DNA of 63,570 nt, the filler included, from Asterionella formosa (taxonomy: Eukaryota): the NCBI GenBank assembly GCA_002256025.1. It is 11 parts of 11 records of this genome, joined end to end, with 100 filler letters (N's around TTAATTAATTAA, not from the genome) between each part and the next. Parts side by side here need not be neighbours in the genome. Positions count along the whole stretch, not along the records: positions 24,694 to 49,284 come from NKIB01002211.1; 10 more parts are not named here. One strand, written 5' to 3'. The notes under the pieces were generated by a model. The model saw only the letters and a program-made list of their open reading frames with translations, searched no databases and was not told where the DNA came from. Position numbers and translations under genes: made by a program. Below are positions 3,582 to 50,872 of this stretch, piece by piece (positions within the stretch are counted from its first letter, which is position 1; each line of letters starts with the position of its first letter).

Positions 3582-6500
3582 CTAATCTGCGAGCTCCCCA
3601 ATTTTGTCAGCTTTGACTAGTGACAATCTGCTCTTTGAATGAACGGCATCAAAGGATTCCGTTCCATCGCGACCAGCTAATTTTTGAATCAACTTAGGTC
3701 CACCAGGGTGAGTTTTTGCAAATTCTGATATGTTGTAGACATCGCCGTGAAATGCAACCCAACAATCTGTCGTCGAATTATGAAGGTTAAGCTCAGCCAG
3801 TGTAATTTCCCTGACATCGTGTTCGCTCTCTTTGGTCAAATTGGCTGGAATTGTTTCAAATCGCCCCATTATCACGTCACCGAAATCTTCTAACATGCGT
3901 TCGTTGTGTACAGCATTGAAGGCAATGCTACCATCCTTACCGGCGAGGGCGAAGATAGATTCAGCCCCTCCTGGATGCTCTTCAGCAAATTCAGTAAAAT
4001 CGTATACAATCCCGTTGATTGCAACCCAGCAATCACCTTCATGGTTGTGCTTCTCCAGTTCTTCCATTTTGATCTCGCTGGTGCAACTCTTGACTTCCTT
4101 TGCTAGATTTGTAGCAGTTGCTTGCACACTCGATTGTAAGGCGCGAGTGCTCTTGATGGGTAACTTCTTCCCAACGATACTTCCGAATACTGTGCACTCA
4201 AGCAGCGAATTACCCCCCAGACGGTTGTCACCGTGCACGCCACCTGTGACCTCACCAGCAGCGTGTAAACCCTGTATGCGTTCCCCGTATTCTGTCAACA
4301 CGTTGCCTTCTGTGTCGATGGAAATCCCTCCCATGCAATAGTGTAGAACTGGTGTAACTTTGCCCGCGTAAAAGATTTCTGAATCAAGATCCATTTGTGG
4401 GATTCCCCTGAATTCAACTTTTCCCCACTGGTCCATGCCCTTTTCGGCGCTCTCTCTATACTGAATTAAAGTCCTGCGAAGGACATCCTCCTTCACCCCC
4501 ATCCACTCAGAAAGTGCAGAAAGCCCTTCAATCTTAGTTAAAAGCCCCTTGTGTGAGTATAGATCAACATGCTTCTTACCGTCTTCGGCAGCTGAAGAGG
4601 CCAAAACCATATTGAAGGTCTCAATCGGGCTATCCTTGTCCCACCGACCCGCTTTTGCGTAGTGAGAATTATGCTGCAGCATCTTGTCAGTAACATAGGC
4701 TCGAGTACCAAGTTCATTACAAAATCGCTTTCCTTCCTTGTTTATAAGAATGCCACCTACTCCACGCATCAGCTCCGCAGCCAGGACTTTGCTTTTATTG
4801 TCAGGATCAGCAGGATCGACCCATCCAGTCGGATGGATCTGTACCTTGTCCATGTCCACAATCCCAGCCCCAAGAGTGGTAGCAAGTGTTAAACCATCCC
4901 CATTTGAAAATTCACCAGCTGTAGCAGGCATATTTACAAGCTCGGGCCGGTACTTGTCTAAGTACGAGCCAGTGCTTCTATCCGCTGCAAAACCTCCAGT
5001 TGCCAAGACGACATTGGATCCTATCAGTTGTTCTGTGTCACCGCTTATCAGGTTTCTGCTTTGGACGCCAATCACCCTACCTTTTTCATTTGTCAACAGT
5101 TGAGTGACTCGAGAATCGACAATAATCTTAACCTTGCCTGTCTTTTCGTAGGACTGAACAGCTTTCTGCATCCCGTAAATGATTTCTGCTCCTACCATCC
5201 CATTACTTGGACGATGAGTGCGCTTGTGCGAGTGACCACCAAGTTGAGCAATCAACGAGAGATCAATACCAACCCGCTCTTTCAACCAAACAACAGCTTC
5301 TTCGGATTTGCTCACTAACACGTCAATCAGCTCTTGTCGCACAGTAGATCCCGCAGACTTGATAGTATCATTCTTAAACGACTCTATGAAGTCACCGAAT
5401 GTAGAATTTTGAGGACAGCATGCATTGATCCCAGAGGAAGCTTTGTTCGAGTTCCCCCCCAGACGGTGTTCCTTTTCTATAACGGTCACCTTGCCACCAC
5501 GATCAAGGATATTCAAGGCAGCAGTTAAACCAGCGAGGCCACTTCCGACAATAATCGCATCAGGCTCGTTATCGTTGCCACCAGTTCCAATCATGTTTGA
5601 AAAGCTTAAAAACTTGTCCGCATCACTTGCATAGTGCTTAGCCAAGATCAAAATGTCAGAATTGCGTTGCAAAGCTAAATGAACCAATTCAGCTTCACGT
5701 TCATTGGAAATGTGGCCACCGCGAGATAACAACGCTGTCAAACCAACGGCAGTATCGACCAAGTTGACCAGGGAATTTCCTGTTTCTATAAATGTTTCCT
5801 CTGAGGGCACAGCCACTATTGTCGCTTGAGTTGCTTTTGCTATGGTCTTGCTTTCCAGAGACTGCGATCGCCAGTATAAATTAGTCAATTCCCTTACTTC
5901 CTTCATACTTTCACTAAACTTGGCAATCGTGTTAATAAAAGCAACCACTTCATTGCGCTCTAAGGAGATGATATCATTCATGAACAAAATCTTCAAGGCG
6001 GTTCCATATCCCGTCATTGCCATTTTGCCATGCAGCTTACATTGTTGGCACTGGACACAATCCAAAATAGATGAAATATTATGAAAGACGCCTTTGAAGT
6101 TTTGCTTCAAAGAAATGACATTTTTTGATGCAACATCTTCGGAGAACATGAGTGTTTCATCAAAGGCTGAAAAGACGGGTTGACAAGATTTAAGAATTGC
6201 TGAATCCAGCAATCGCTTTAGCAAAACAGATGCCGCTTGATCTTCCAACGTGTTTCCAGATGATATGGGATAGTTGTACAGGTAGTCAGAAGCCTTGCGA
6301 AGCGCTCGGAGGAGCACGACGTAGGAAAAATGAAGATTGCGAAGATAGTCAGGATTACCTTCAAACTTTGCCATAAAAAGCTCTGGATTGGGCTCCCAAT
6401 TGAGTCGATTCTTACGCTTTGACGGAGGATAATAGTGTTTGACTATGGACAAGGTAGTGGAAGTGTGTAATCCACTCAGTAGCCTGTGCATGACGCGTTC

Positions 6501-7442
6501 TTCATAGCACATTTCATGTTCCTTGGCTACCAGGCAGTTTTCTTGATATATCGCATTCCAAATGTGTGTTCCATTGTACCCTGTGTTGCGTTCTGGATTC
6601 AAGAGCAAATTTACCACCTTTGTTGTGTCACCCGCTTTAATGTTAACGCACATGTCGTGCCAAAAAGTGTCGAGTAAGGGATTCGAACAGTCTTTTCCTT
6701 CGCAACAATCTTCCTTTTGGGTGTCAGCAATAACTTTGTCGGAATGCTTGTTCCATTGATACGTCTTGCGTTGGGCTTCTGATTCAAAACCAAGACTATA
6801 AATTGTTTGCAGTGCGGCGGCAATGAAATCCTGAATGGGAGTTGAGCGCTTTTCATCTTCATTCAATGTACAGAGTGGCTCTGAATCATCGTCCATGCCC
6901 AAGTCTTCACCTCCATCGCATTCAAAGTCTGCATCGTCTAATTTTGGTTCTAAATCAGAACCAGGCTTGGATGACGCTGCCTTCTTGTCGTTTCTTTCTG
7001 ATTTGAAGATGCTCACGTCGCTAGTCATGCCTCCTCCATATCCCAGAGCAGAAAAAGGATCCTCTTCTTGCAATGCACAAGCAGGACCAGCATCATCATC
7101 CATGTCGGGGATTCCGTCGGATTCGCAAGTTTTCAATTCTACCTCCTCGTCTGCATCCGATTCCTTTTCAACTTTCTCTATTGAAGTACTCGTATCTTCC
7201 TTTTTCAAAGGACACGTCTGATCCAAGTCCACGATAAAGGATCTGAAAAAGGAAGTTGCCTTGAGCTCATGCAAAATTTCAAATAATTGAGAGTCATTGG
7301 CTTTTTCTAAGTCTTCCACGTTGCATTGCATGTCACTGTAAATTGGTCCGGAACTTGGCAACGACGAGGAAGGGTAAAACAATGGTTGTGTTAGGCTGCA
7401 TACTGGGGAACAAAGCAGCAATAGAGCGACCGTGAACTTCAT
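3582..7442 (-). CDS. Secretory-pathway fusion protein: ER oxidoreductin 1 (ERO1) + soluble FAD-dependent fumarate reductase (Osm1/flavocytochrome c type) + two cytochrome b5 domains
   Basis: Single 1286-aa ORF with a signal peptide (MKFTVALLLLCSPVCS). ERO1 motifs FFRSFIVDL, LLLNPERNTGYNG, CYEERVMHRLLSGLHTS and CVQCQQCKLHGK. FRD motifs GSGLAGL, GGNSNKASSGIN, GGHSHKRTH, VQIHPTG, HYCMGG and GGVHGDNRLGGNSL. Two b5 domains, each with HPGG and a second His. Confidence 0.93.
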   Translation of the reverse strand: MKFTVALLLLCSPVCSLTQPLFYPSSSLPSSGPIYSDMQCNVEDLEKANDSQLFEILHELKATSFFRSFIVDLDQTCPLKKEDTSTSIEKVEKESDADEEVELKTCESDGIPDMDDDAGPACALQEEDPFSALGYGGGMTSDVSIFKSERNDKKAASSKPGSDLEPKLDDADFECDGGEDLGMDDDSEPLCTLNEDEKRSTPIQDFIAAALQTIYSLGFESEAQRKTYQWNKHSDKVIADTQKEDCCEGKDCSNPLLDTFWHDMCVNIKAGDTTKVVNLLLNPERNTGYNGTHIWNAIYQENCLVAKEHEMCYEERVMHRLLSGLHTSTTLSIVKHYYPPSKRKNRLNWEPNPELFMAKFEGNPDYLRNLHFSYVVLLRALRKASDYLYNYPISSGNTLEDQAASVLLKRLLDSAILKSCQPVFSAFDETLMFSEDVASKNVISLKQNFKGVFHNISSILDCVQCQQCKLHGKMAMTGYGTALKILFMNDIISLERNEVVAFINTIAKFSESMKEVRELTNLYWRSQSLESKTIAKATQATIVAVPSEETFIETGNSLVNLVDTAVGLTALLSRGGHISNEREAELVHLALQRNSDILILAKHYASDADKFLSFSNMIGTGGNDNEPDAIIVGSGLAGLTAALNILDRGGKVTVIEKEHRLGGNSNKASSGINACCPQNSTFGDFIESFKNDTIKSAGSTVRQELIDVLVSKSEEAVVWLKERVGIDLSLIAQLGGHSHKRTHRPSNGMVGAEIIYGMQKAVQSYEKTGKVKIIVDSRVTQLLTNEKGRVIGVQSRNLISGDTEQLIGSNVVLATGGFAADRSTGSYLDKYRPELVNMPATAGEFSNGDGLTLATTLGAGIVDMDKVQIHPTGWVDPADPDNKSKVLAAELMRGVGGILINKEGKRFCNELGTRAYVTDKMLQHNSHYAKAGRWDKDSPIETFNMVLASSAAEDGKKHVDLYSHKGLLTKIEGLSALSEWMGVKEDVLRRTLIQYRESAEKGMDQWGKVEFRGIPQMDLDSEIFYAGKVTPVLHYCMGGISIDTEGNVLTEYGERIQGLHAAGEVTGGVHGDNRLGGNSLLECTVFGSIVGKKLPIKSTRALQSSVQATATNLAKEVKSCTSEIKMEELEKHNHEGDCWVAINGIVYDFTEFAEEHPGGAESIFALAGKDGSIAFNAVHNERMLEDFGDVIMGRFETIPANLTKESEHDVREITLAELNLHNSTTDCWVAFHGDVYNISEFAKTHPGGPKLIQKLAGRDGTESFDAVHSKSRLSLVKADKIGELAD

Positions 7443-24593: not shown

Positions 24594-24693
24594 NNNNNNN
24601 NNNNNNNNNNNNNNNNNNNNNNNNNNNNNNNNNNNNNTTAATTAATTAANNNNNNNNNNNNNNNNNNNNNNNNNNNNNNNNNNNNNNNNNNNN
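24594..24693. other. Artificial contig spacer N44-TTAATTAATTAA-N44 (also 49285-49384, 50873-50972, 52461-52560, 54049-54148, 55636-55735, 57223-57322, 58810-58909, 60397-60496, 61984-62083)
   Basis: Ten identical 100-bp spacers, each containing a six-frame stop linker. Confidence 0.99.
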
Positions 24694-24706
24694 TACAGAA
24701 TTAATT

Positions 24707-24820
24707 GAAGTATTTCAAATAATTATGTGAAGTATTTCAAATAATTATGTGAAGTATTTCAAATAATTATGTGAAGTATTTCAAATAATTATGTGAAGTA
24801 TTTCAAATAATTATGTGAAG
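24707..24820 (+). repeat. 22-bp minisatellite (GAAGTATTTCAAATAATTATGT) x5
   Basis: Five perfect head-to-tail units with no spacers, followed by degenerate copies to ~24965. Confidence 0.95.
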
Positions 24821-26279
24821 GTGATCACGTAATATAGTGATGATCAGGAATGCATGCATGATACTCTCATCAAATAATTAACGTGATGTATTCAGATAAT
24901 ATATAGATATATTCAAGTAAGCATTTTGATGTATTCAACTAATTCATGTGATCCATTCAAAATCAACTAGGCTTATTTACGTGATGGTCACTTCACGTAA
25001 TACGCGGCTTAGATGTAGGTGGCTGGACTTTGATCGGAAACCACGAGACAGTATTGCAGATTCAGATGGAACGTGTGTCTCATCAGATTTCCTGTGTCAT
25101 CGTACTAGCTCCTTACCTTTGAAGACAGGAGCATATTCTTTGATGTATCTGGAATGTTTCAATGGATGGCAGCAGTTGGATTTAGACACAAGCCTTGACA
25201 AAAGCACTACTTTGTAGATGTTCATAAAAAGCCAGACACTTTGGCCTATCGACCACCAGCCTGTCTATACTGCAAAAATGCAAGAAGCACAAGTTTAATG
25301 CCCATTTATGGATTCAAGTTTCAGTAGTGCAACAATGTAAAATATTAGAAACCGGAAGTCACATTTCATCTAATTACGGTTTTCAATTTTACTGTTTTTC
25401 ATTGAGAGGAAGCAATGGCAGAATGGCTGCCAAATGGGCGGGGGCAAACACAGAGAAGCCAACTAATTTCTCTCCCCAAAAATCCCAGACCCTTCTTGAA
25501 TATCACTTGCTACAGAAAATGGAAAACAGCCGCCATGATCTGTTGATTGTTGCTGTATGGTGCCACTGACCAAAACCTCCAGAAATCTCAATGAGTTCCT
25601 TGTTTCTTGACTTGAATGCAAAAGGGATTGAAACCAATGGAAAAATCAAAAGGGAACTAAAAATGCTCTGCAAACATCAGGATAATTGTGAAAGAGAAAT
25701 GAAGGTTCTTGGGAGGAGAAGTAAAGGGATAATTGCTTCTGGTCTTGCGGGAACAAGAATGGATTGACCCAAACAATGTTGACAAATAGGTACCTACCGG
25801 AAAAGGAAGCAATGTTTTCGGCATCATCATTCTATACACAAGCCTGCGCCACCTGACGTCAACATAGCTACCTCGACTTCATCAATGAGGAAGTTGATGG
25901 GTGGAGCATGTGAGGAAAATCGGGGTTGAGGTTTTCTTGACGCCAACATGGGCTTGCTTGGATGAACTTGCAGTTGAAGGCATTGAATAACCTGGGCCTG
26001 TTGAGCCAAAGGATAAAGAAAAATCTATGACTCTTATTATCAACTAACGTTTTGGTGTTTGATCTATAGATAGTAATTGTGAGATCAAATCAGTTATTGA
26101 TTCGATCTAACCTTTGGAATGCTAATATCAAATAGAATTTTTAGCTTTCAATCTAACATTCATTACTACTGATCTAACTAATTTCTCTCATTGATCAAAC
26201 CTATTATCATGTTCGATCAATGATGAACACAATTCGAATTAAATGGATTGCTATTCAATACTCAAATATTCTACTTCTG

Positions 26280-37293: not shown

Positions 37294-38405
37294 CAATTTC
37301 TTTAGACCTGAGGGGATGAAACATGTACATGCCGTTGTCATCGCCACAAAATTTGCACCACCTATGCACTATGTCACATTACATTCATGCATGGTGGGAA
37401 CGCCAAAATGGTTTTAGAATCCGTACAGAACTTATCTAACAACTTATATTTTAGACTTCGAAAATTCTGACAAGGAACTGAGTGCAAAATCTTTGTCAAC
37501 CACAATTCCTCTGTTTCTGTCATACCAGGGTAGTGAGAAAGGCAAATCTGCTATGATTTGATTAACAAAGAAATGGATACTAGCTGTATTTACACTCAAT
37601 ACTTGTGAGTTCAATGGGTCTTGAATTATATTATTCTCTTGCCTAATATATCAGAGTCATTAGTGGCCTTACCTTGCAGCACATTACCCTGGTCCCGCCA
37701 AAAAGTTGTTGTAAATTTGCTGACATTGCAATGTTACCTTGATAGATACTTGATGTGTCTGCCAAACCAATAATAAAAGAAAATTTGATTTCATACCAGT
37801 TTATTTTTTCCATTTGAGGTATTCATGTTTTTGAAATGTTTTCAGTTGGGCCTCGATTTTGCTTAAAAATGTCAGTGCAAAACTGATTTGGTACTTACTA
37901 TTGTGTTGACAACGAGGTTACAAAGGCGACTCATTGTGCGGAGAAAATATGGGTGGTCATCGAACTTAGCTTTGGGTGGCACAACCAGTAACTTTCTGGA
38001 AAAACTTACTTTGCACACACAAATCAGGCCAACATCCAGCAGAAATATACTTACCCATATGATACATTGGGACCTATAAGCAGATGGGGAGAAAATTTTA
38101 CATATTGCGGTTGGAGCATGCATGGGTAGCTCTCCGCTTAACTCAAAGCAATGCACAACTCTCAGAACTAGGTATGGAGGCAGTAGTCCACAACAACAAT
38201 CCACGAGAACGGGTTGTGAGCAGGCAAATCAAACAGGCAGTAAATATATGCAACAACTGTGGGCAAGATTGAGGAAATATGCAAATTGTGATGTGGGTTC
38301 TAGCCTTCATAAAAATAAATCATAATACATGATGCAACAGGAGAAATTAGTGATTTTTGTTGATGAGGAAAAGTTCCAATGCTTGTGTTGCACAGGCCCC
38401 CATAA

Positions 38406-38732
38406 TATTGAAATTGCGTCCCGAAGCACTCTATGCTTTCTTGTATCCTGTAAGGACACGTCAGGGACCAAATAGGCTGTAGATATGAACAACGATGTAT
38501 CCGTAATTGATTGTAATTGTTCCTAAGACTTTAGATATGAACAACGATGTATCCGTAATTGATTGTAATTGTTCCTAAGACTTTTAGTAGAATTATGGGT
38601 TTTACTGTTGGAGTAGATTGTTTTCGAATTCTGAGTTTTCTCTGGTACCATATTTTTTTTTGATTCATTCGATTCAATATGTAGTAGGTTATTTATACCG
38701 GGATTTTCTTTCCTAAAATAATTTCTCCAACA
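38406..38732 (-). repeat. 3' LTR (327 bp, contains a ~52-bp tandem duplication)
   Basis: Near-identical to 42842-43117. Preceded on the minus strand by the PPT-like CAGCAGAAGTG; one terminal dinucleotide is mutated (TG to TA on +). Confidence 0.92.
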
Positions 38733-41700
38733 CACTTCTGCTGGACACGGATGCTCACTTTGAATTCATAATTTGCTCACATAAATGAATAAATTTCGTT
38801 CCAACCAGTGGTTTCGTCATGTAGTCTGCTAACATTGCATCCGTTGGACAGTACTTGATTTTTACTTCCTTTCTTTCAATAAGATCAGTAATGTAAAAAT
38901 AATTGATGTTGAAATGTCGCATGCATTTTCCTGAACTTGCTTTTCCATTTGCTTCTAGCTTCATTGCGCTAGTGTTGTCACGGTAAATGACATTTGTAGT
39001 CACCTTATGTCCTTGTGCTTCAATAAATAGTTTCATCCACAACACCTTTGATATAATGTCATCGACACCAACCAATTCTGCTTCAGTCGAACTTCTAGTG
39101 TTCACTTTCTTATGAACAAATAATTCCGTTGCCAAGTGACAATGTAGCTCCCGTGTGACTTTTAAAATCTTTGTGTACTGCAAACGCCGCATCAACGTAC
39201 CATTTAATGCTCTGAGTGTCATCAGCACTCATAGATGCAACCTCAAACTGAGTTGTTTTCAAGAAATTCATGATCTTGACAAATTTTTCCCAATCGCCAT
39301 CATTCGGTTCTGTAGTTCGGGTTGCCAGAAATGCAATTCCTGGTTGAATGTCCTGTCTTCCTCGCTTACATAGGAACATTCCTTTCATAACAAAAGTATG
39401 AAACATTTTTGCTTTTTCATATTCAAGCTTCCTTGATTTTGTATCTTTTGTGAACAATTTATCTGTCCATGGGAATTTTCCAACACCTTCAAGTTTGTCT
39501 GGAAAATCATCAATCATTGATTTCACATATTTGTTCATGTCCTCCCTCAACACTCCTGGAAGAGAGTAATCTAGTGTCATCACCAAATAATCATGCTTCT
39601 TTGCACAAATGACCTTGACTTCGCCAATTTCGTCAGAAGCGTATTTCTTTTTGAGCCATTCCAAAAATTGATCATTCACTTTGCTGTCCACATGACTAGA
39701 TTTCAAATCGTCTACGTGCCAAGTTACTGTGTGCTGTTTGCCATTAACAATGCGATTTGCAACGCATGGATCATATGGGTTGACCTTGAATCCAATTGAC
39801 TCAATATCCTTCCGAAATTTCTTGTAATATAATAATGATGACTGTAACATGCCATATAATGCCTTGATCATAGCTACTAACATATAGGAGCTTATTGTTT
39901 CCTTCATACACAACATATTTTTCATAAGTCTCGGGGCTGAGTTCTGTCAACATATTGACAAGTAAACCTCTAATATTCATAATGATTCGCTCCCTTTTTT
40001 CTTTCTCATCGATATTCACTTGCACAAATGCATTGGGTATATCTGCAGTCATAACATTGCGATTTTGCTTTGCATCAATTGTTGCTGTTATCATAACAGA
40101 TTCAGTCATGATAGTTGGACTAGCTGCCTCATCTCTTTCCATGTATTCACGTTGCAAACTGCCATTGGCGCATGCTCTGCCTTTAATGCTCTTGTCTCTC
40201 TTTTCAACCAAAAAAATTAGACTTTCCATTACACGTCGCTTTTCGATATTGGTTAGGTCTTCAATCCTACTTGGTTCTAATACAAATCTATCATGTAGTC
40301 GTTTCATTTCTTTATACACAGTGTCTCTTCCTTTCTGGCCAAATTTCTTGAGGCCTTTCCTTAAGCTGTATGACTGAACAAAGTGAAATGCTTCTTTATC
40401 AATACACATCTCATTCATATAACACATTGTCTTTGCGATCACTTTCGCTTTGTCAGCCGTGTATTCTTCTTGACAATGTGCTTGGGTATGCAAATGATGT
40501 TGGACCATAATCCTTCGATTATTTTGCTCCACTTCAGGAACATGTTCTTGTGGGTTACGTAGTTCATAGTGACTTGAAATTCATTGGAAATTTGTTCCAT
40601 CAAAGGTCGAAACTTGTTGTCACAGTGGATTGTTGTAATTTTAAATCCTCCGGTATTATAAACACGGAATACCTGAATCAAAGCATCTCGATAGACTTCA
40701 GCTGTCTGATTCTTGACCCATTGCGTTGTCCTATACATAATGTTTCAAGAAATTGTTGTGAGAAATGATTGTCCATTCACTTTCATTCCATCCATGCAAA
40801 GAATCACCATCTCGATGTAGTCATTCACGACTGGCAGCGGCTTGCGACGAGTTGTCTTGCCTTTTAGTGTTCCAATGTCAGGTCCAAACATTTTCTCTGC
40901 ACTTTTGATATCATTGGTAGTGACTGGATTATTGTTGATTGTATTCATACTAATTATTGCCTTGAAATCATTAATCCATGGTGTACCCAAGGCATGAAAT
41001 AGATCATGAGCTCGCTTAGCTCTCTGAAATTGACGTTCAGTGAAAAATGTTTTGTTTTCTTCAACTGTATTTAACATTTGAGCATTCTCCACTTTAATTG
41101 TTGTATTTGGCTTGAAAACATATAAGTTCATCCCAATTCTTTTGAATCGAACTGGCTTGTCAGGCAAATGAACAATGAATGCATCTTCTTTCTCAGAGTC
41201 ATAGGTAATTCTGTACCCATCTGCCATTTCAGCATAACTGAGGATGTTTGTGATTGCCTTCTCATTAAATCATACTTCTCTCCATTGTGGAAGATCAGCC
41301 TTCATATTAGAGACCATGGATCCACCATTTGTGGCCAGGTGCATGCTTCCATTGGTTGACATTTGAATGTTTTCAACCATTTTTGGATCGCAAAATACTG
41401 TGACACTTGATTGATTATCCAATAGTATCCAGTCACGCATCTCAGATGTTTGGTAAAATTGTAGTTTCATGTGAGCTCCTGCCCTTTCAAATTGATTGAC
41501 ATTTGCTTGTTGTGAAGCTTGTGATGACAACGGGTTGTTGGAATTAACAGAGTTAACTGTACTTGTGTCTGATGTAGAAGCCTGTGCCTGTGCATGGCTT
41601 TGGGCCCTGTTGATAACACATTCCTCTTTGGGTTTGTTCTTGTCTTGGCACGAAGGAGATTTGTGACCTGCTCTACCGCAGCAGTAACATTTTCCTTCTA

Positions 41701-42841
41701 ACTGTGCAAACAACAAGTTCACATCTTTGTCTTCCTTCCCTGCTTCCTTTTGTTTTCTCTCTTTATCATTATCTCCTGGTTTCTTGCAGTTGGATTTATT
41801 TGTTACGTCAAACCGATGGTTGTTGAGAACATTATTTGATTCGGTGATGGTCTTTGGGTATTGATCGTTGCCAAGTGATTGTTGAGTGTTCAGCCCGGTC
41901 ATGATTGAACCATATTTGGCTTTATCTACATTATCAAGGTATAAATAGGCCATAAATTGACTGAAAGCTTGTTTGCGAAATTTATCTCGTAGCTTGATGT
42001 CAGTCTCATTGTATCCATCCATGGCTTCAACAAACTTGGTGAGGATAATGGGTCTTCCCATGTGTGACTTGAGCATATCTCATGCCACATGGAATCTTTT
42101 GGTGTAATCTTGTAGACTTTCTTCTTCCTTTTACTTTGTGAATAAAAGCGTTCTCATTGCATCTAAAATGATCAACATTGAATATCGATTTTCTTGAAAA
42201 TTTAGTGCGTGTTCTTTAATTGCCATGAGCAATGTTATTGGGTTTTTCCGATCCTATTGTAATTGGAACTTGCTTTGATCTTGTTCTTCATGGCTTTGTT
42301 GCATCTTTCCCAGAGCAACGCATATGCCTTGGTAAAATTATTTTCGTAGGCCTGTACCCTTTTACTGTAGGTGTCATAGTCAGCCTTGAAATCAATCTCA
42401 TATTGTCGATTCTCTGCAGCACGATCTTCTTCTGTAGTTGCAATGCTCACTTGCATTCTTGGCTTCCATGCCGATGTGTTGATTGGTTCTAACAACTTGA
42501 GCGCACTTCCTATGTCGTTGCCATAGTCAAACACTTTCTTGATGTGATTGATGAGGTACTCAGTAGTAGTCTCATAATCAGATGCCTGCTTAGATGATCC
42601 GAGGTAGTAGCTAGTTATAGTCATTAATTGACTTCTTGATGGAGTGAGAAGCAATATTGCTCCCTCCCTTGGCTTGAGCTTTCTTGGTAAACTTTCCTTT
42701 GCCACTCATGATGCGCCTTGTGCGACTTCTTCAGACTCTGGATGGTCTGGTACCTTCAGATCTTGTCTCGGGACTCTCAACGGTCCACTTGTTGTTGATT
42801 GTGATGTACAGCTCTCTCTGGCCGGCTAATTCTACTAAAAC

Positions 42842-43117
42842 TGTTGAAATTGCATCCCGAAGTACTCTATGCTTTCTTGTATCCTGTAAGGACACGTCAG
42901 GGACCAAATAGGCTGTAGATATGAACAACGATGTTGCTGTAATTGATTGTAATCGTTCCTAAGAGTTTTAGTAGAATTATGGGTTTTACTATTGGAGTAG
43001 ATTGTTTTCGAATTCTGAGTTTTCTCTGGTACCATATTCTTTTTTTGATTCATTCGATTCAATATGTAGTAGGTAATTTATACCGGGATTTTCTTTCCTA
43101 AAATAATTTCTCCAACA
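42842..43117 (-). repeat. 5' LTR (276 bp, TGTTG...CAACA)
   Basis: TG..CA termini with a short inverted repeat; matches the 3' LTR. Confidence 0.93.
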
Positions 43118-46100
43118 CATAACACCATTCGTCAATTGCCTTTTTGCCAATATTTGCCATCTTTTTTTTTCAACTAATTGAGTTTTTGGAATCTATTTTG
43201 GAGGGGAACATTTAGCTAAAACAGTATGATCTCAACAAGGCAATCACTTTATGCATACATGAGATGCAATACCCTGGTTGAGAGGATGGAACCACAGGCT
43301 CAATCTCCACGGCATAATCACTGGACAATTTTGAAAAGGGCTTCAAAGTTGTGGTGGAAAAGACTTCACATCATCTCCTAGTAGTGGAGTTTATCTCGGC
43401 CACTACAGGGCCATACTCAAAGATGATCATATATGCATGGTCTACACCACTCTCTTTTCTATTCGATTTGAATTCGGAATACCCTGGACAGATGACTTCA
43501 AGTGCTCTGATCATACTATAGTAAGTCAAAGGGAAGCTGATAATCGATAAGCCACAGGTAGATACAGTTAATTGATGCAGACCTAAACATGATGCTCATG
43601 ATCATCTAGCCAGCGCTTGAATCCTCACAGATCTAAGGACAAAAAGACAATCTCTAGTTTGCATTGCGGATCACGCCCAAAATCGGTCATCAATGGAAGC
43701 AATGCTAAATGAAAAGATTAACTTATGATGGCATCCGCATTTTCATAAGGGTGACAATAATATTTGATAATAACTGCAAAGATGATTTCGATTGCATGGT
43801 TCCATCCATGGGAGGATTGCACGTCGCTATTTGGGTGCCAGCAAAATGGCAGTTGACACTTTATTGATTGCATTAGAGAAGACTTCATATCGCAGGTAAA
43901 CCGCAATGGAGATATCCAAAGATTACTAAGCAATAAAATGTATCATACTTGGAGCAATTTCTAAAAAATCGCAGAGCTTACAATCACTAATCTTAACAAC
44001 ACACTTCAACTCCAACACGCTGTCGAAATATGTGGATGATACTGAAATCTTGCTTTCTCCTCTGGACAGTGGAACAATCCATGATTTGGGTCAAGACAAG
44101 CAACATGATATTGCTCAGTTTTGGGAGCAGCTCCTCTACCGCACTGGTGGGAGTGCATTGGCACTCGAGAAATGTTTATATACAATGGATTGTACCAGGA
44201 GGCGCTGGATTTATCCATTCAACCACTCAAATCCTGGAGTAACAACAACATTCACAAATTAATACCTGAAAAGACTAGAAGGAAGGTCCTCACAATTTAT
44301 GAGCTCGGTTGCCGCCACATGGTAGCAATTGGGATGAACTGGCCACATTAATTTTTAAGCGACGCATACTGACGAATCAAAACATGTCAGCAGCGAACTT
44401 GCGATGGGCGGAGGTTATGTTGGCTTACAAAGTTATCCTAAGACCATTCATGAAGTATCCCTTGTGTGGGTCCACTTTCACCTTCACCAAAAGTAAGCAA
44501 ATTGACAGGTCAAATTTCTAGCCTACCTTTTTGAAGCACATGGGTTTTCATTAAATGGAAAAACGCATCCTCCTCTTTGGACCTTTATCACTGCGGTGCA
44601 TGGCTTCACAAATAACTACGTACACCAATCAGGGAATACTACAAGCTCAGATCATGTTGAGCTACCTTTGCCATCAGGGTGAAAAGCTGCTCTGTATTTG
44701 TACTTGTATTCACTTTGTTATACTCACATTTATACTTAGCGAAAAAATTCCAAACAAAGAAGAATTGCCATTGAGGACACATGAACCATAAGCCCCCACA
44801 TGGAATTTGGTGTGAATCTAAAGCAAATTAGGACATATACACACTTGAACTTGCCTCCGAAGATGCTAAAGTGGCTGAATGCATGCTGGATGCACCTTTG
44901 GGTGATCACGGTTGTAGACACAAGTGATGATACAAGCTCTCTTATATAACAGCTAACATCTTTAAGGTTCATAGAGGCACAGAGTAAGTCTACCATACAA
45001 ATGCCCACACCAGTACAATCCTTCTCCAACTGCATGGACACGCTGGCGAAAAACCTTGGGCATGACTTTGTGAAACCTTTGAACAGGGAAACTGTGGACA
45101 CCTTTGGGACAATGGCTGCATATTCCGCCAGTTCATGAGAGATGGAAGTTTTATTTAGTTTCGTCACAACATCGCCTTATTGAAGTCTCAGGGAGTTGGA
45201 TGCAGGTTCAAGGTAAATGATCAAGCAAACACTCTCTATACTGTTAAGATGGCCGACACAATGAATTTTCGCTGACCAATATGGGTGCATACAGTCACTG
45301 TCATGGTGCAATCATCGTGAGAGAAAATTGAAACAGTAGGAACATTCTAATAAATACCCATGCATGAACAACCTCGTCATCTGTTGAGATTTTCTACTGT
45401 TAGTACAGCATACATGCTATCATACTTTCCCACGACATCTCAATAGGGTGCAATAGTTGATTATTCTCTTCCAACCTAGTTATTGAAGTTTATCACTTCA
45501 TTACTCAAGTGCCAGATGTGGTTCTGGCTTCTGACGGCTCCATCCTGGGGACAATGTGGTATGTGACCCAGAGATGGAAATTACATGACCCCTGAATGCT
45601 CACTAGTAGTGTGTTTGAACATGGCCTAGTCATGGGAGGTGGGCATCCCGTGTTCTTTCTGGCCAGAATTGGGTGGTTTCCTGGCTGGGAGGCCTGGTTG
45701 CCCTACAGTTGTCAGGATAAAACAAGTAGGTTCTGAGTAATTATAGTGAATTGGTAAGTAGTGTAGAGAATTGGTAATTAGGTAATAAATGGGTAATTAT
45801 GAGCTTATACGAGCGATTAGTGTATCTATACTAACTCATTGTTAAAGGGACTCATAAGGGCCTCAATGAGAAAGGGATTCACAAGGGCCTTAATGAGAAG
45901 GTTCTTAGATGTCAAGAGTCCATACTAGGTGTTTTGTTTTATCCTAGCATTGGTACCAGGGTACAACTATTCTAGAGGTACATTCACTGAACATATGTAG
46001 CTGCGGGTAAAGCATAATGCAACATGTACTACGAGCTACATACTAGTAATAAACTCTCTATCCTTATACAACTACCGGTAAGCCGTTGTGTCGGCAAATG

Positions 46101-49284: not shown

Positions 49285-49384
49285 NNNNNNNNNNNNNNNN
49301 NNNNNNNNNNNNNNNNNNNNNNNNNNNNTTAATTAATTAANNNNNNNNNNNNNNNNNNNNNNNNNNNNNNNNNNNNNNNNNNNN

Positions 49385-50872
49385 AAGATCAGTAATATAA
49401 AAATACTTGATGTTGAAATGTCGCGTGCATTTTCCTGAACTTGCTTTTCCATTTGCTTCTAGCTTCATTGTGCTAGTGTTGTCACGGTAAATGACATTTG
49501 TAGTCACCTTGTGTCCTTGTGCTTCAATAAATAATTTTGTCCACAACACCTTTGATATAATGTCATCGACACCAACCAATTCTGCTTCAGTTGAACTTCT
49601 AGTGTTCACTTTCTGTTTCGTAGACATAGAACAGATAATTCCGTTTCCAAGTGACATTGTAGCTCCTGTGTGACTTTTAAAATCTTTGTGCACTGCAAAC
49701 GCCGCATCAACGTACCATTTAATGCTCTGAGTGTCATCAGCACTCATAGATGCAACCTCATTCTGAGTTGCTTTCAAGAAATTCATGATCTTGACTAATT
49801 TTACCCAATCACCTTCATTCAGTTCAGTAGTTCGGGTTGCCAGAAATGCAATTCCTGGTTGAATGTCCTGTCTTCCTTGCTTACATAGGAACATTCCTTT
49901 CATAACAAAAGTATGAAATATTTTTACTTTTTCATATTCAAGCTTCTTTGATTTCGTATCAACTGTGAACAATTTATCTGTCCATGGGAATTTTCCAACA
50001 CCTTCAAGTTTCACTGGAAAATCATCATTCATTGATTTCACATATTTGGTCATGTCCACCCTCAACACTCCTGGAATAGAGTAATCTAGTGTCATCGCCA
50101 AATAATCATGCTTCTTTCCACGCATGACCTTGACTTCACCACTTTCGTCAGAAGCGTATTTCTGTTTGAGCCATTCCAAAAATTGATCATTCACTTTGCT
50201 GTCCACGTGACTTGATTTCAAATCGTCTACGTGCCAAGTAACTGTGTGCTGTTTGCCATTAACAATGCGATTTGCAACACATGGATCATATGGGTTTACC
50301 TTGAATCCAATTGATTCAATATCCTTCCGAAATTTCTTGTAATATAATAATGATGACTGTAACATGCCATATAATGCCTTGATCATCCTAACATATAGGA
50401 CCTTGTTGTTCTCTTCATAAACAACATATTTTTCATAAGTCTCGGGGCTGAGTTCTGTCAACATATTGACAAGCAAACCTCTAATCTTCATAATGATTCG
50501 TTCCCCTTTTTCTTTCTCATCGATATCCACTTGCACAAATGCATTGGGTATATCTGCAGTCATAACATCGCGATTTTGCTTCGCATCAATTGTTGCTGTT
50601 ATCATAACAGATTCAGTCATGGTAGTTGGACTAGCTGCTTCATCTCTTTCCATGTACTCACGTTGCGAACTGCCATTGGCACATGCTCTGCCTTTAATGC
50701 TCTTGTCTCTCTTTTCAACCAAAAAAATTAGACTTTCCATTGCACGTCGCTTTTCAATATCGGTTAGGTCTTCAATCCTAATCGGTTCAAACACAACTCT
50801 ATCATGTAGTTGTTTCATTTCCTTATAAGCAGCGTCTCTTCCTTTCTGGCCAAATTTCTTGAGGCCTTTCCT
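49385..50872 (-). mobile_element. CoDi-type Copia RT-RNase H fragment, same family as 38406-43117 but with an intact frame
   Basis: Open frame across the contig; nucleotide sequence nearly identical to 38881-40361. Confidence 0.95.

Follow-up and report, generated by a model that had tools for sequence, protein, structure and literature searches.

A diatom clade of Copia retrotransposons whose primer-binding position pairs with its own LTR probably primes reverse transcription on its own RNA

A diatom clade of Copia retrotransposons probably uses its own RNA, and not a tRNA, to prime reverse transcription. In these elements the primer-binding position (PBS) pairs with a segment of the element's own LTR, the helix lies at the LTR end and covaries between families, an initiator-like motif is found at a fixed distance from it, and the pairing is absent from the other Copia lineages that we examined. 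From this arrangement we infer where the transcript starts, where it is cut and how synthesis is primed.

Results

A Copia element in Asterionella formosa has a PBS complementary to its own LTR

The pairing was observed in a Copia element at 43117-38406, on the minus strand of the window, a term we use for the whole 63,570-nucleotide stretch of A. formosa DNA that was analysed. The element is flanked by the 5-bp TSD TTATG, with a left copy at 43118-43122 and a right copy at 38401-38405. Its 5' LTR (42842-43117) is 276 bp long and has TG...CA ends, while its 3' LTR (38406-38732) measures 327 bp, ends in TA instead of CA, contains a 52-bp internal duplication and differs at one base of the predicted primer. 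Where the two LTRs can be aligned they are 97.1% identical, with 8 differences over 275 aligned bases. The interior holds a broken gag-pol (38758-42709) with Gag and its zinc knuckle, protease, a putative integrase, RT and RNase H, and a purine-leaning tract at 38733-38743 that precedes the 3' LTR and by this position is a putative PPT. Relative to P0001, an intact relative, the coding region of this copy is interrupted by stops and frameshifts and is missing residues ~734-1038. The copy is therefore dead, and could act in cis at most, if at all.

The Copia-type RT profile (PF07727, RVT_2) scores above the cut-off in P0001 and in a second fragment of the window (49337-50818), and below it in both broken RT pieces of the focal copy. 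An RT-RNase H piece of the same family, at 49385-50872, matches P0001 at 97.6% and fills a short contig between N gaps. Ahead of the RT of P0001 there is a weak SH3_retrovirus match (E 0.039) together with D-D-E-like motifs recognised by eye, and no rve match. The domain search returned no chromodomain, and an RT of the RVT_2 type sets the polyprotein apart from that of a Ty3/gypsy chromovirus. A PDB profile search gave weak zinc-knuckle matches only, and a scan of viral contigs gave just two weak matches of 15 residues each.

The PBS (42827-42841, minus strand) directly follows the CA of the 5' LTR, with zero gap and without TGG, in agreement with its placement by the first-pass annotation. 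Read along the minus strand, the 15 nt at 42841-42827 and those at 42979-42965 are perfect reverse complements of each other. The 15-nt complement reported in that annotation is thus present, and it extends to 16 bp through pairing of the LTR's terminal A (42842) with the T at 42964, such that the predicted self-primer occupies 42964-42979. Each of the two 15-mers occurs once per strand within the window. Given the base composition of this LTR, a perfect complement would arise somewhere in it by chance with a probability of 3.4e-6 for 15 nt or 9e-7 for 16 nt. When RNA beginning at 42980 was folded, the primer:PBS helix, which closes a 121-nt R-U5 loop (42843-42963), was present in both the minimum-energy and the centroid fold. 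Its pair probability was ~1.0 in the focal copy, and of 23 folded families 22 reached 0.85 or more; the z score of the whole fold was only -1.79 in the focal copy, with 10 of 200 shuffles as good.

Elsewhere in the window, a 1286-amino-acid ORF (3582-7442, minus strand) joins ERO1, a flavin-binding domain (FAD_binding_2) and cytochrome b5, and a tandem array with a 22-nt period (24637-24830) adjoins a contig gap. Regular 1.59-kb "repeats" were rejected as such, as they are N gaps between contigs.

The PBS does not fit the host tRNAs

The genome yielded 77 tRNA predictions, 61 of them distinct, nuclear and organellar, in a set that is incomplete and holds no Cys or Glu tRNA. Among these 61, no tRNA 3' end pairs with the focal PBS over more than one base, and the longest Watson-Crick run between the PBS and any part of a tRNA is 6 nt; once G-U pairs are allowed, the longest run becomes 12 nt, in the interior of one tRNA-Tyr. 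A tRNA or half-tRNA PBS was rejected on this lack of fit among the 61 distinct tRNAs of the incomplete set, and the comparison of the 15-mer with host tRNAs that had been proposed beforehand leaves the self-priming reading in place. It could still be argued that the PBS matches a host tRNA or half-tRNA absent from the set, and that its complement in the LTR arose by copying or by accident, given that the tRNA list is incomplete and that half-tRNA priming exists in Copia (PMC6317226). We give this explanation next to no credence, as some 29 different PBS sequences, most of them AT-rich, each pair with the LTR of the element that carries them (see below), and as the probability of a chance match is ~1e-6 for the focal copy.

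PBS:LTR pairing is maintained while its sequence changes

Within the focal family, 40 copies drawn from 408 LTR candidates were scored, and the best 30 were retained. All 15 positions pair in 19 of these best 30, 14 positions in 7, and 11-13 in the remaining 4. One helix position is C:G in 18 copies, T:A in 8 and a mismatch or wobble in 4; we count the change between C:G and T:A as one compensatory event, not eight.

To look beyond this family, we collected 79 loci in a Gag-led metagenome scan and applied a detector that searches for the complement of the 14 nt after a CA. Thirty of the 79 loci were matched, 29 at the LTR end and one (L155) at an unrelated place, while three shuffles gave no match at all. 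One further locus, L108, shows the pairing through its 3' LTR, which brings the loci with pairing at the LTR end to 30 of 79. Twenty-two of the 49 loci without a pairing match were inspected by eye, and the other 27 mostly begin inside Gag. The inspected loci have decayed or truncated 5' ends: two are decayed with a recognisable primer, six have an LTR end without LTR interior, and the rest have no recognisable LTR-PBS junction.

Removal of five near-duplicates left 24 non-redundant families. Across PBS positions 1-14 of these families, 335 of 336 cells are Watson-Crick pairs, with 2-4 pair types per position, although this score is partly selected, the families having been found via the inverted repeat. 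When the primer of one family is set against the PBS of another, a mean of 6.2 of 14 positions pair (maximum 13). Three features are free of the selection: the position of the helix at the LTR end, its length, and the initiator. Without exception the helix begins at the end of the LTR, and its limits are sharp. The LTR's last A is paired in 19 of the 24 families and the next base in one; at the far boundary, PBS position 15 is paired in 11 and position 16 in 5.

The A. formosa genome itself contains further families of this kind. A second family, with 27-28% Gag identity to L112 and an RT at 37-40% to P0001, shows 14/14 pairing in 8 loci. Another 20 loci, picked by Gag similarity alone, add three more families; 15 of these loci show the geometry (10-14 of 14 positions, one by eye), one has lost its primer and four are without a junction. 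The same geometry is therefore present in four own-genome families besides the focal one, down to 27-29% Gag identity. Including L082 and L122, pairing of 12-18 nt is kept at the LTR end in ~29 families while its sequence changes, and the covariation that had been suggested as a check is thus found as compensatory change among relatives. PBS:LTR pairing is real and holds across the clade. The earlier suggestion that a diatom Copia may self-prime gains support from the pairing, from its covariation and from the lack of a fit among the 61 tRNAs.

A helix maintained in this way may have another role, such as packaging, dimerisation, translation control or shielding, with priming carried out by a tRNA fragment elsewhere or by a protein. 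The gaps in the host tRNA set leave room for this explanation, and palindromic PBS positions in other Copia families of the genome indicate that further priming modes may exist. However, the helix begins precisely where the LTR ends, the point from which minus-strand synthesis has to be primed if U5 is to be defined, and the PBS is too variable among families for any fixed tRNA. We therefore regard a role other than priming as very unlikely.

An initiator-like motif lies at a fixed distance from the helix

In 24 of 25 families, the A of a YCA[CTA] motif precedes the nucleotide that pairs with PBS base 1 by 15 or 16 nt; the background nearby upstream is 1.9% per position. In the focal copy the motif is a YCAY at 42979-42982 (minus strand), with its A at 42980. 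It resembles both the diatom initiator-like element TCAH(+1)W (PMC4686930) and the oomycete initiator YCAYTYY (PMC3599244). Because an initiator-like YCA occurs at this fixed offset in 24 of 25 families, transcription probably starts at the motif, which predicts a start at 42980 or 42979 here, upstream of 42965 and in line with the first-pass annotation. The focal family also has a TATA-like box ~100 nt upstream (43082-43076), which would suggest an earlier start and counts against the self-primer reading; by eye, such a box at a fixed distance is not common to the other families.

RNA contigs from four metatranscriptome runs (Logan), a form of data that cannot show starts, reach depths in the thousands at 42866-42949 and of 96-179 at 42992-43033 in three runs. 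The depth is flat in the fourth run, and it climbs again at the LTR's outer end. In three runs the contigs also cover the R-U5 part (42842-42950) at far greater depth than Gag; some continue beyond the LTR end into unrelated sequence, and may be read-out from solo or 3' LTRs.

A candidate mechanism for self-priming

We propose that the RNA would start at the initiator-like motif, and that its first ~15-16 nt would anneal back to the PBS, closing the R-U5 loop. Cleavage at the helix 3' end (~+15 to +17), by analogy with Tf1 likely by the element's RNase H, would free a 3'-OH, and the RT would extend the freed primer across U5-R. Plus-strand synthesis would then copy the primer back into the PBS, by which the PBS would track the LTR. 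A change in the LTR would then reach the PBS with a delay of one generation, a lag consistent with the few mismatched copies.

In Tf1, the PBS is bound by the first 11 transcript bases, RNase H cleavage falls between bases 11 and 12 (PMC7175516), and two flanking helices are described as required (PMC10085805). Across the 25 families we found neither flanking helix, since none had a z score under -2 on either side (the means were +0.28 and +0.21), and a Tf1 three-helix "pretzel" was accordingly rejected for the clade. A short hairpin just 3' of the PBS (+15 to +50; for example in L096, L101 and L112) is common by eye, and has a z score below -2 in only 3 of 25 families.

The lack of Tf1-type flanking helices to position a cut speaks for a variant in which an LTR-derived primer is supplied in trans, with no fold-back cut. 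Such a primer would be either a capped RNA of just 15-17 nt that starts at the LTR initiator, or a 5' end cleaved from another RNA packaged alongside. It would explain the covariation, the fixed length and the initiator position equally well, and the ~400 LTR candidates of the focal family are in its favour. We nevertheless think it unlikely, since the cis helix, at the pair probabilities given above, would outcompete it, and since Tf1, the one precedent put to the test, primes in cis (PMC7175516).

The clade is deeply separated from other Copia lineages

Named relatives come from Fragilaria, Nitzschia, Epithemia and Fistulifera, all of them diatoms, and an Atlas search points to Bacillariophyta; the matches of the homolog and Atlas searches are diatom taxa, with no CoDi label among them. 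We built a quick RT tree of 50 rows, made up of 30 clade members and 20 other Copia RTs of this genome, with no named CoDi or TAR element; the second own-genome family was too partial for inclusion. The clade is split from the 20 other RTs by a very long branch with an SH-aLRT of 100, at a point where long branches meet. Clade RTs share 20-28% identity with other Copia RTs of the genome, and match RVT_2 with an E value of ~1e-11 as against 1e-48 for canonical Copia RTs.

As controls we took 40 loci of other Copia lineages of this genome, among which seven elements from four families had both LTRs delineated (L283 was left out, and one of the seven was represented by only 126 nt of its LTR). 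The pairing is absent from these seven, whose best self-complement is 7-10 of 14; their PBS is of the TGG type in two and a palindrome in five. The TGG-type PBS lies just after the 5' LTR in L202 and L285 (minus strand), and it resembles the half-tRNA-Met type; the set of 61 tRNAs holds no match for it. A palindrome of 10-12 nt follows the 5' LTR in L201 (3101-3120, plus strand), L292 (minus strand), L210 (3038-3060, plus strand), L283, L284 and L291. These palindrome elements represent two other Copia families of the genome, with neither TGG nor an LTR complement, and their PBS recalls the palindromic site of fungal GalEa.

Discussion

Self-priming of this kind has relatives in two superfamilies. 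In Tf1 and Tf2 of Schizosaccharomyces pombe, among the Tf1/sushi chromoviruses, it is likewise the element's own RNA, through its 5' end, that pairs with the PBS in place of a tRNA (PMC7175516, PMC10085805), the corresponding start in the diatom clade being a predicted one. Unlike these Ty3/gypsy elements, the clade has an RT of the Copia type and a putative Copia domain order. Its primer is 14-16 nt long compared with the 11 nt of Tf1, its helix usually takes in the LTR's last A, and its start and cut are predictions, whereas the mechanism of Tf1 has been shown by experiment. The "Tf1-like" label of the first-pass annotation is thus apt for a PBS complementary to the element's own LTR, but not for the longer primer or for the flanking helices, which are missing.

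In Copia, self-priming has been predicted for the plant TAR lineage of Ty1/copia elements (Houba, Osr-1), in 89% of 203 elements (PMC6317226). The same source describes three properties shared with our clade, namely membership of the Copia superfamily, a PBS with 10 nt or more of complementarity to the 5' LTR, and a 5-bp TSD. Self-priming is therefore unusual for Ty1/Copia, as the annotation had supposed, yet it has a predicted precedent. The diatom elements differ from TAR in their diatom host and in an RT far from canonical Copia RTs. The diatom clade is likely a separate case, its self-priming likely separate in origin from that of plant TAR, no sequence of which is in our tree. TAR lies in branch 2. 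The CoDi clades have been placed in branch 1 (PMC5445492).

A Copia PBS that is not matched to a tRNA is also reported for fungal GalEa, which has a Conserved Hairpin Site; this site is a local hairpin without an LTR complement, in contrast to the clade, where the partner of the PBS lies in the LTR (PMC5445492). Among diatom elements, CoDiII (CoDi5) was described by Maumus et al. 2009 as diatom-specific and as the lineage most distant from other Copia (PMC2806351). Like CoDiII, our clade is a diatom lineage whose named relatives are all diatoms, and on the strength of that description the clade may be CoDiII. In what we consulted of the description (PMC2806351) we found no PBS or priming mode, and a report of self-priming in diatoms was likewise not found in the literature searched, a body that did not extend to subscription journals, Repbase or GyDB.

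It appears rather more plausible than otherwise that this deep diatom clade invented self-priming independently of both Tf1/sushi and TAR and with a design of its own, comprising a primer of 15-16 nt whose length is set from the initiator, a helix extended by the last A of the LTR, and no flanking helices, which would call for a different placement of the cut.

The PBS:LTR pairing provides a simple signature with which to annotate these elements and to place their transcription start, and it explains why PBS finders based on tRNAs miss them. If the clade does self-prime, it would offer a system in which to ask whether the RNase H of a Copia element can cut an RNA-RNA helix without the flanking structure of Tf1. 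Experimental proof of self-priming is confined to Tf1-type Gypsy elements, and in Copia it has been predicted for a single lineage, in plants; this abundant diatom clade would add a third and likely independent case, and would make the loss of the tRNA primer a repeated solution.
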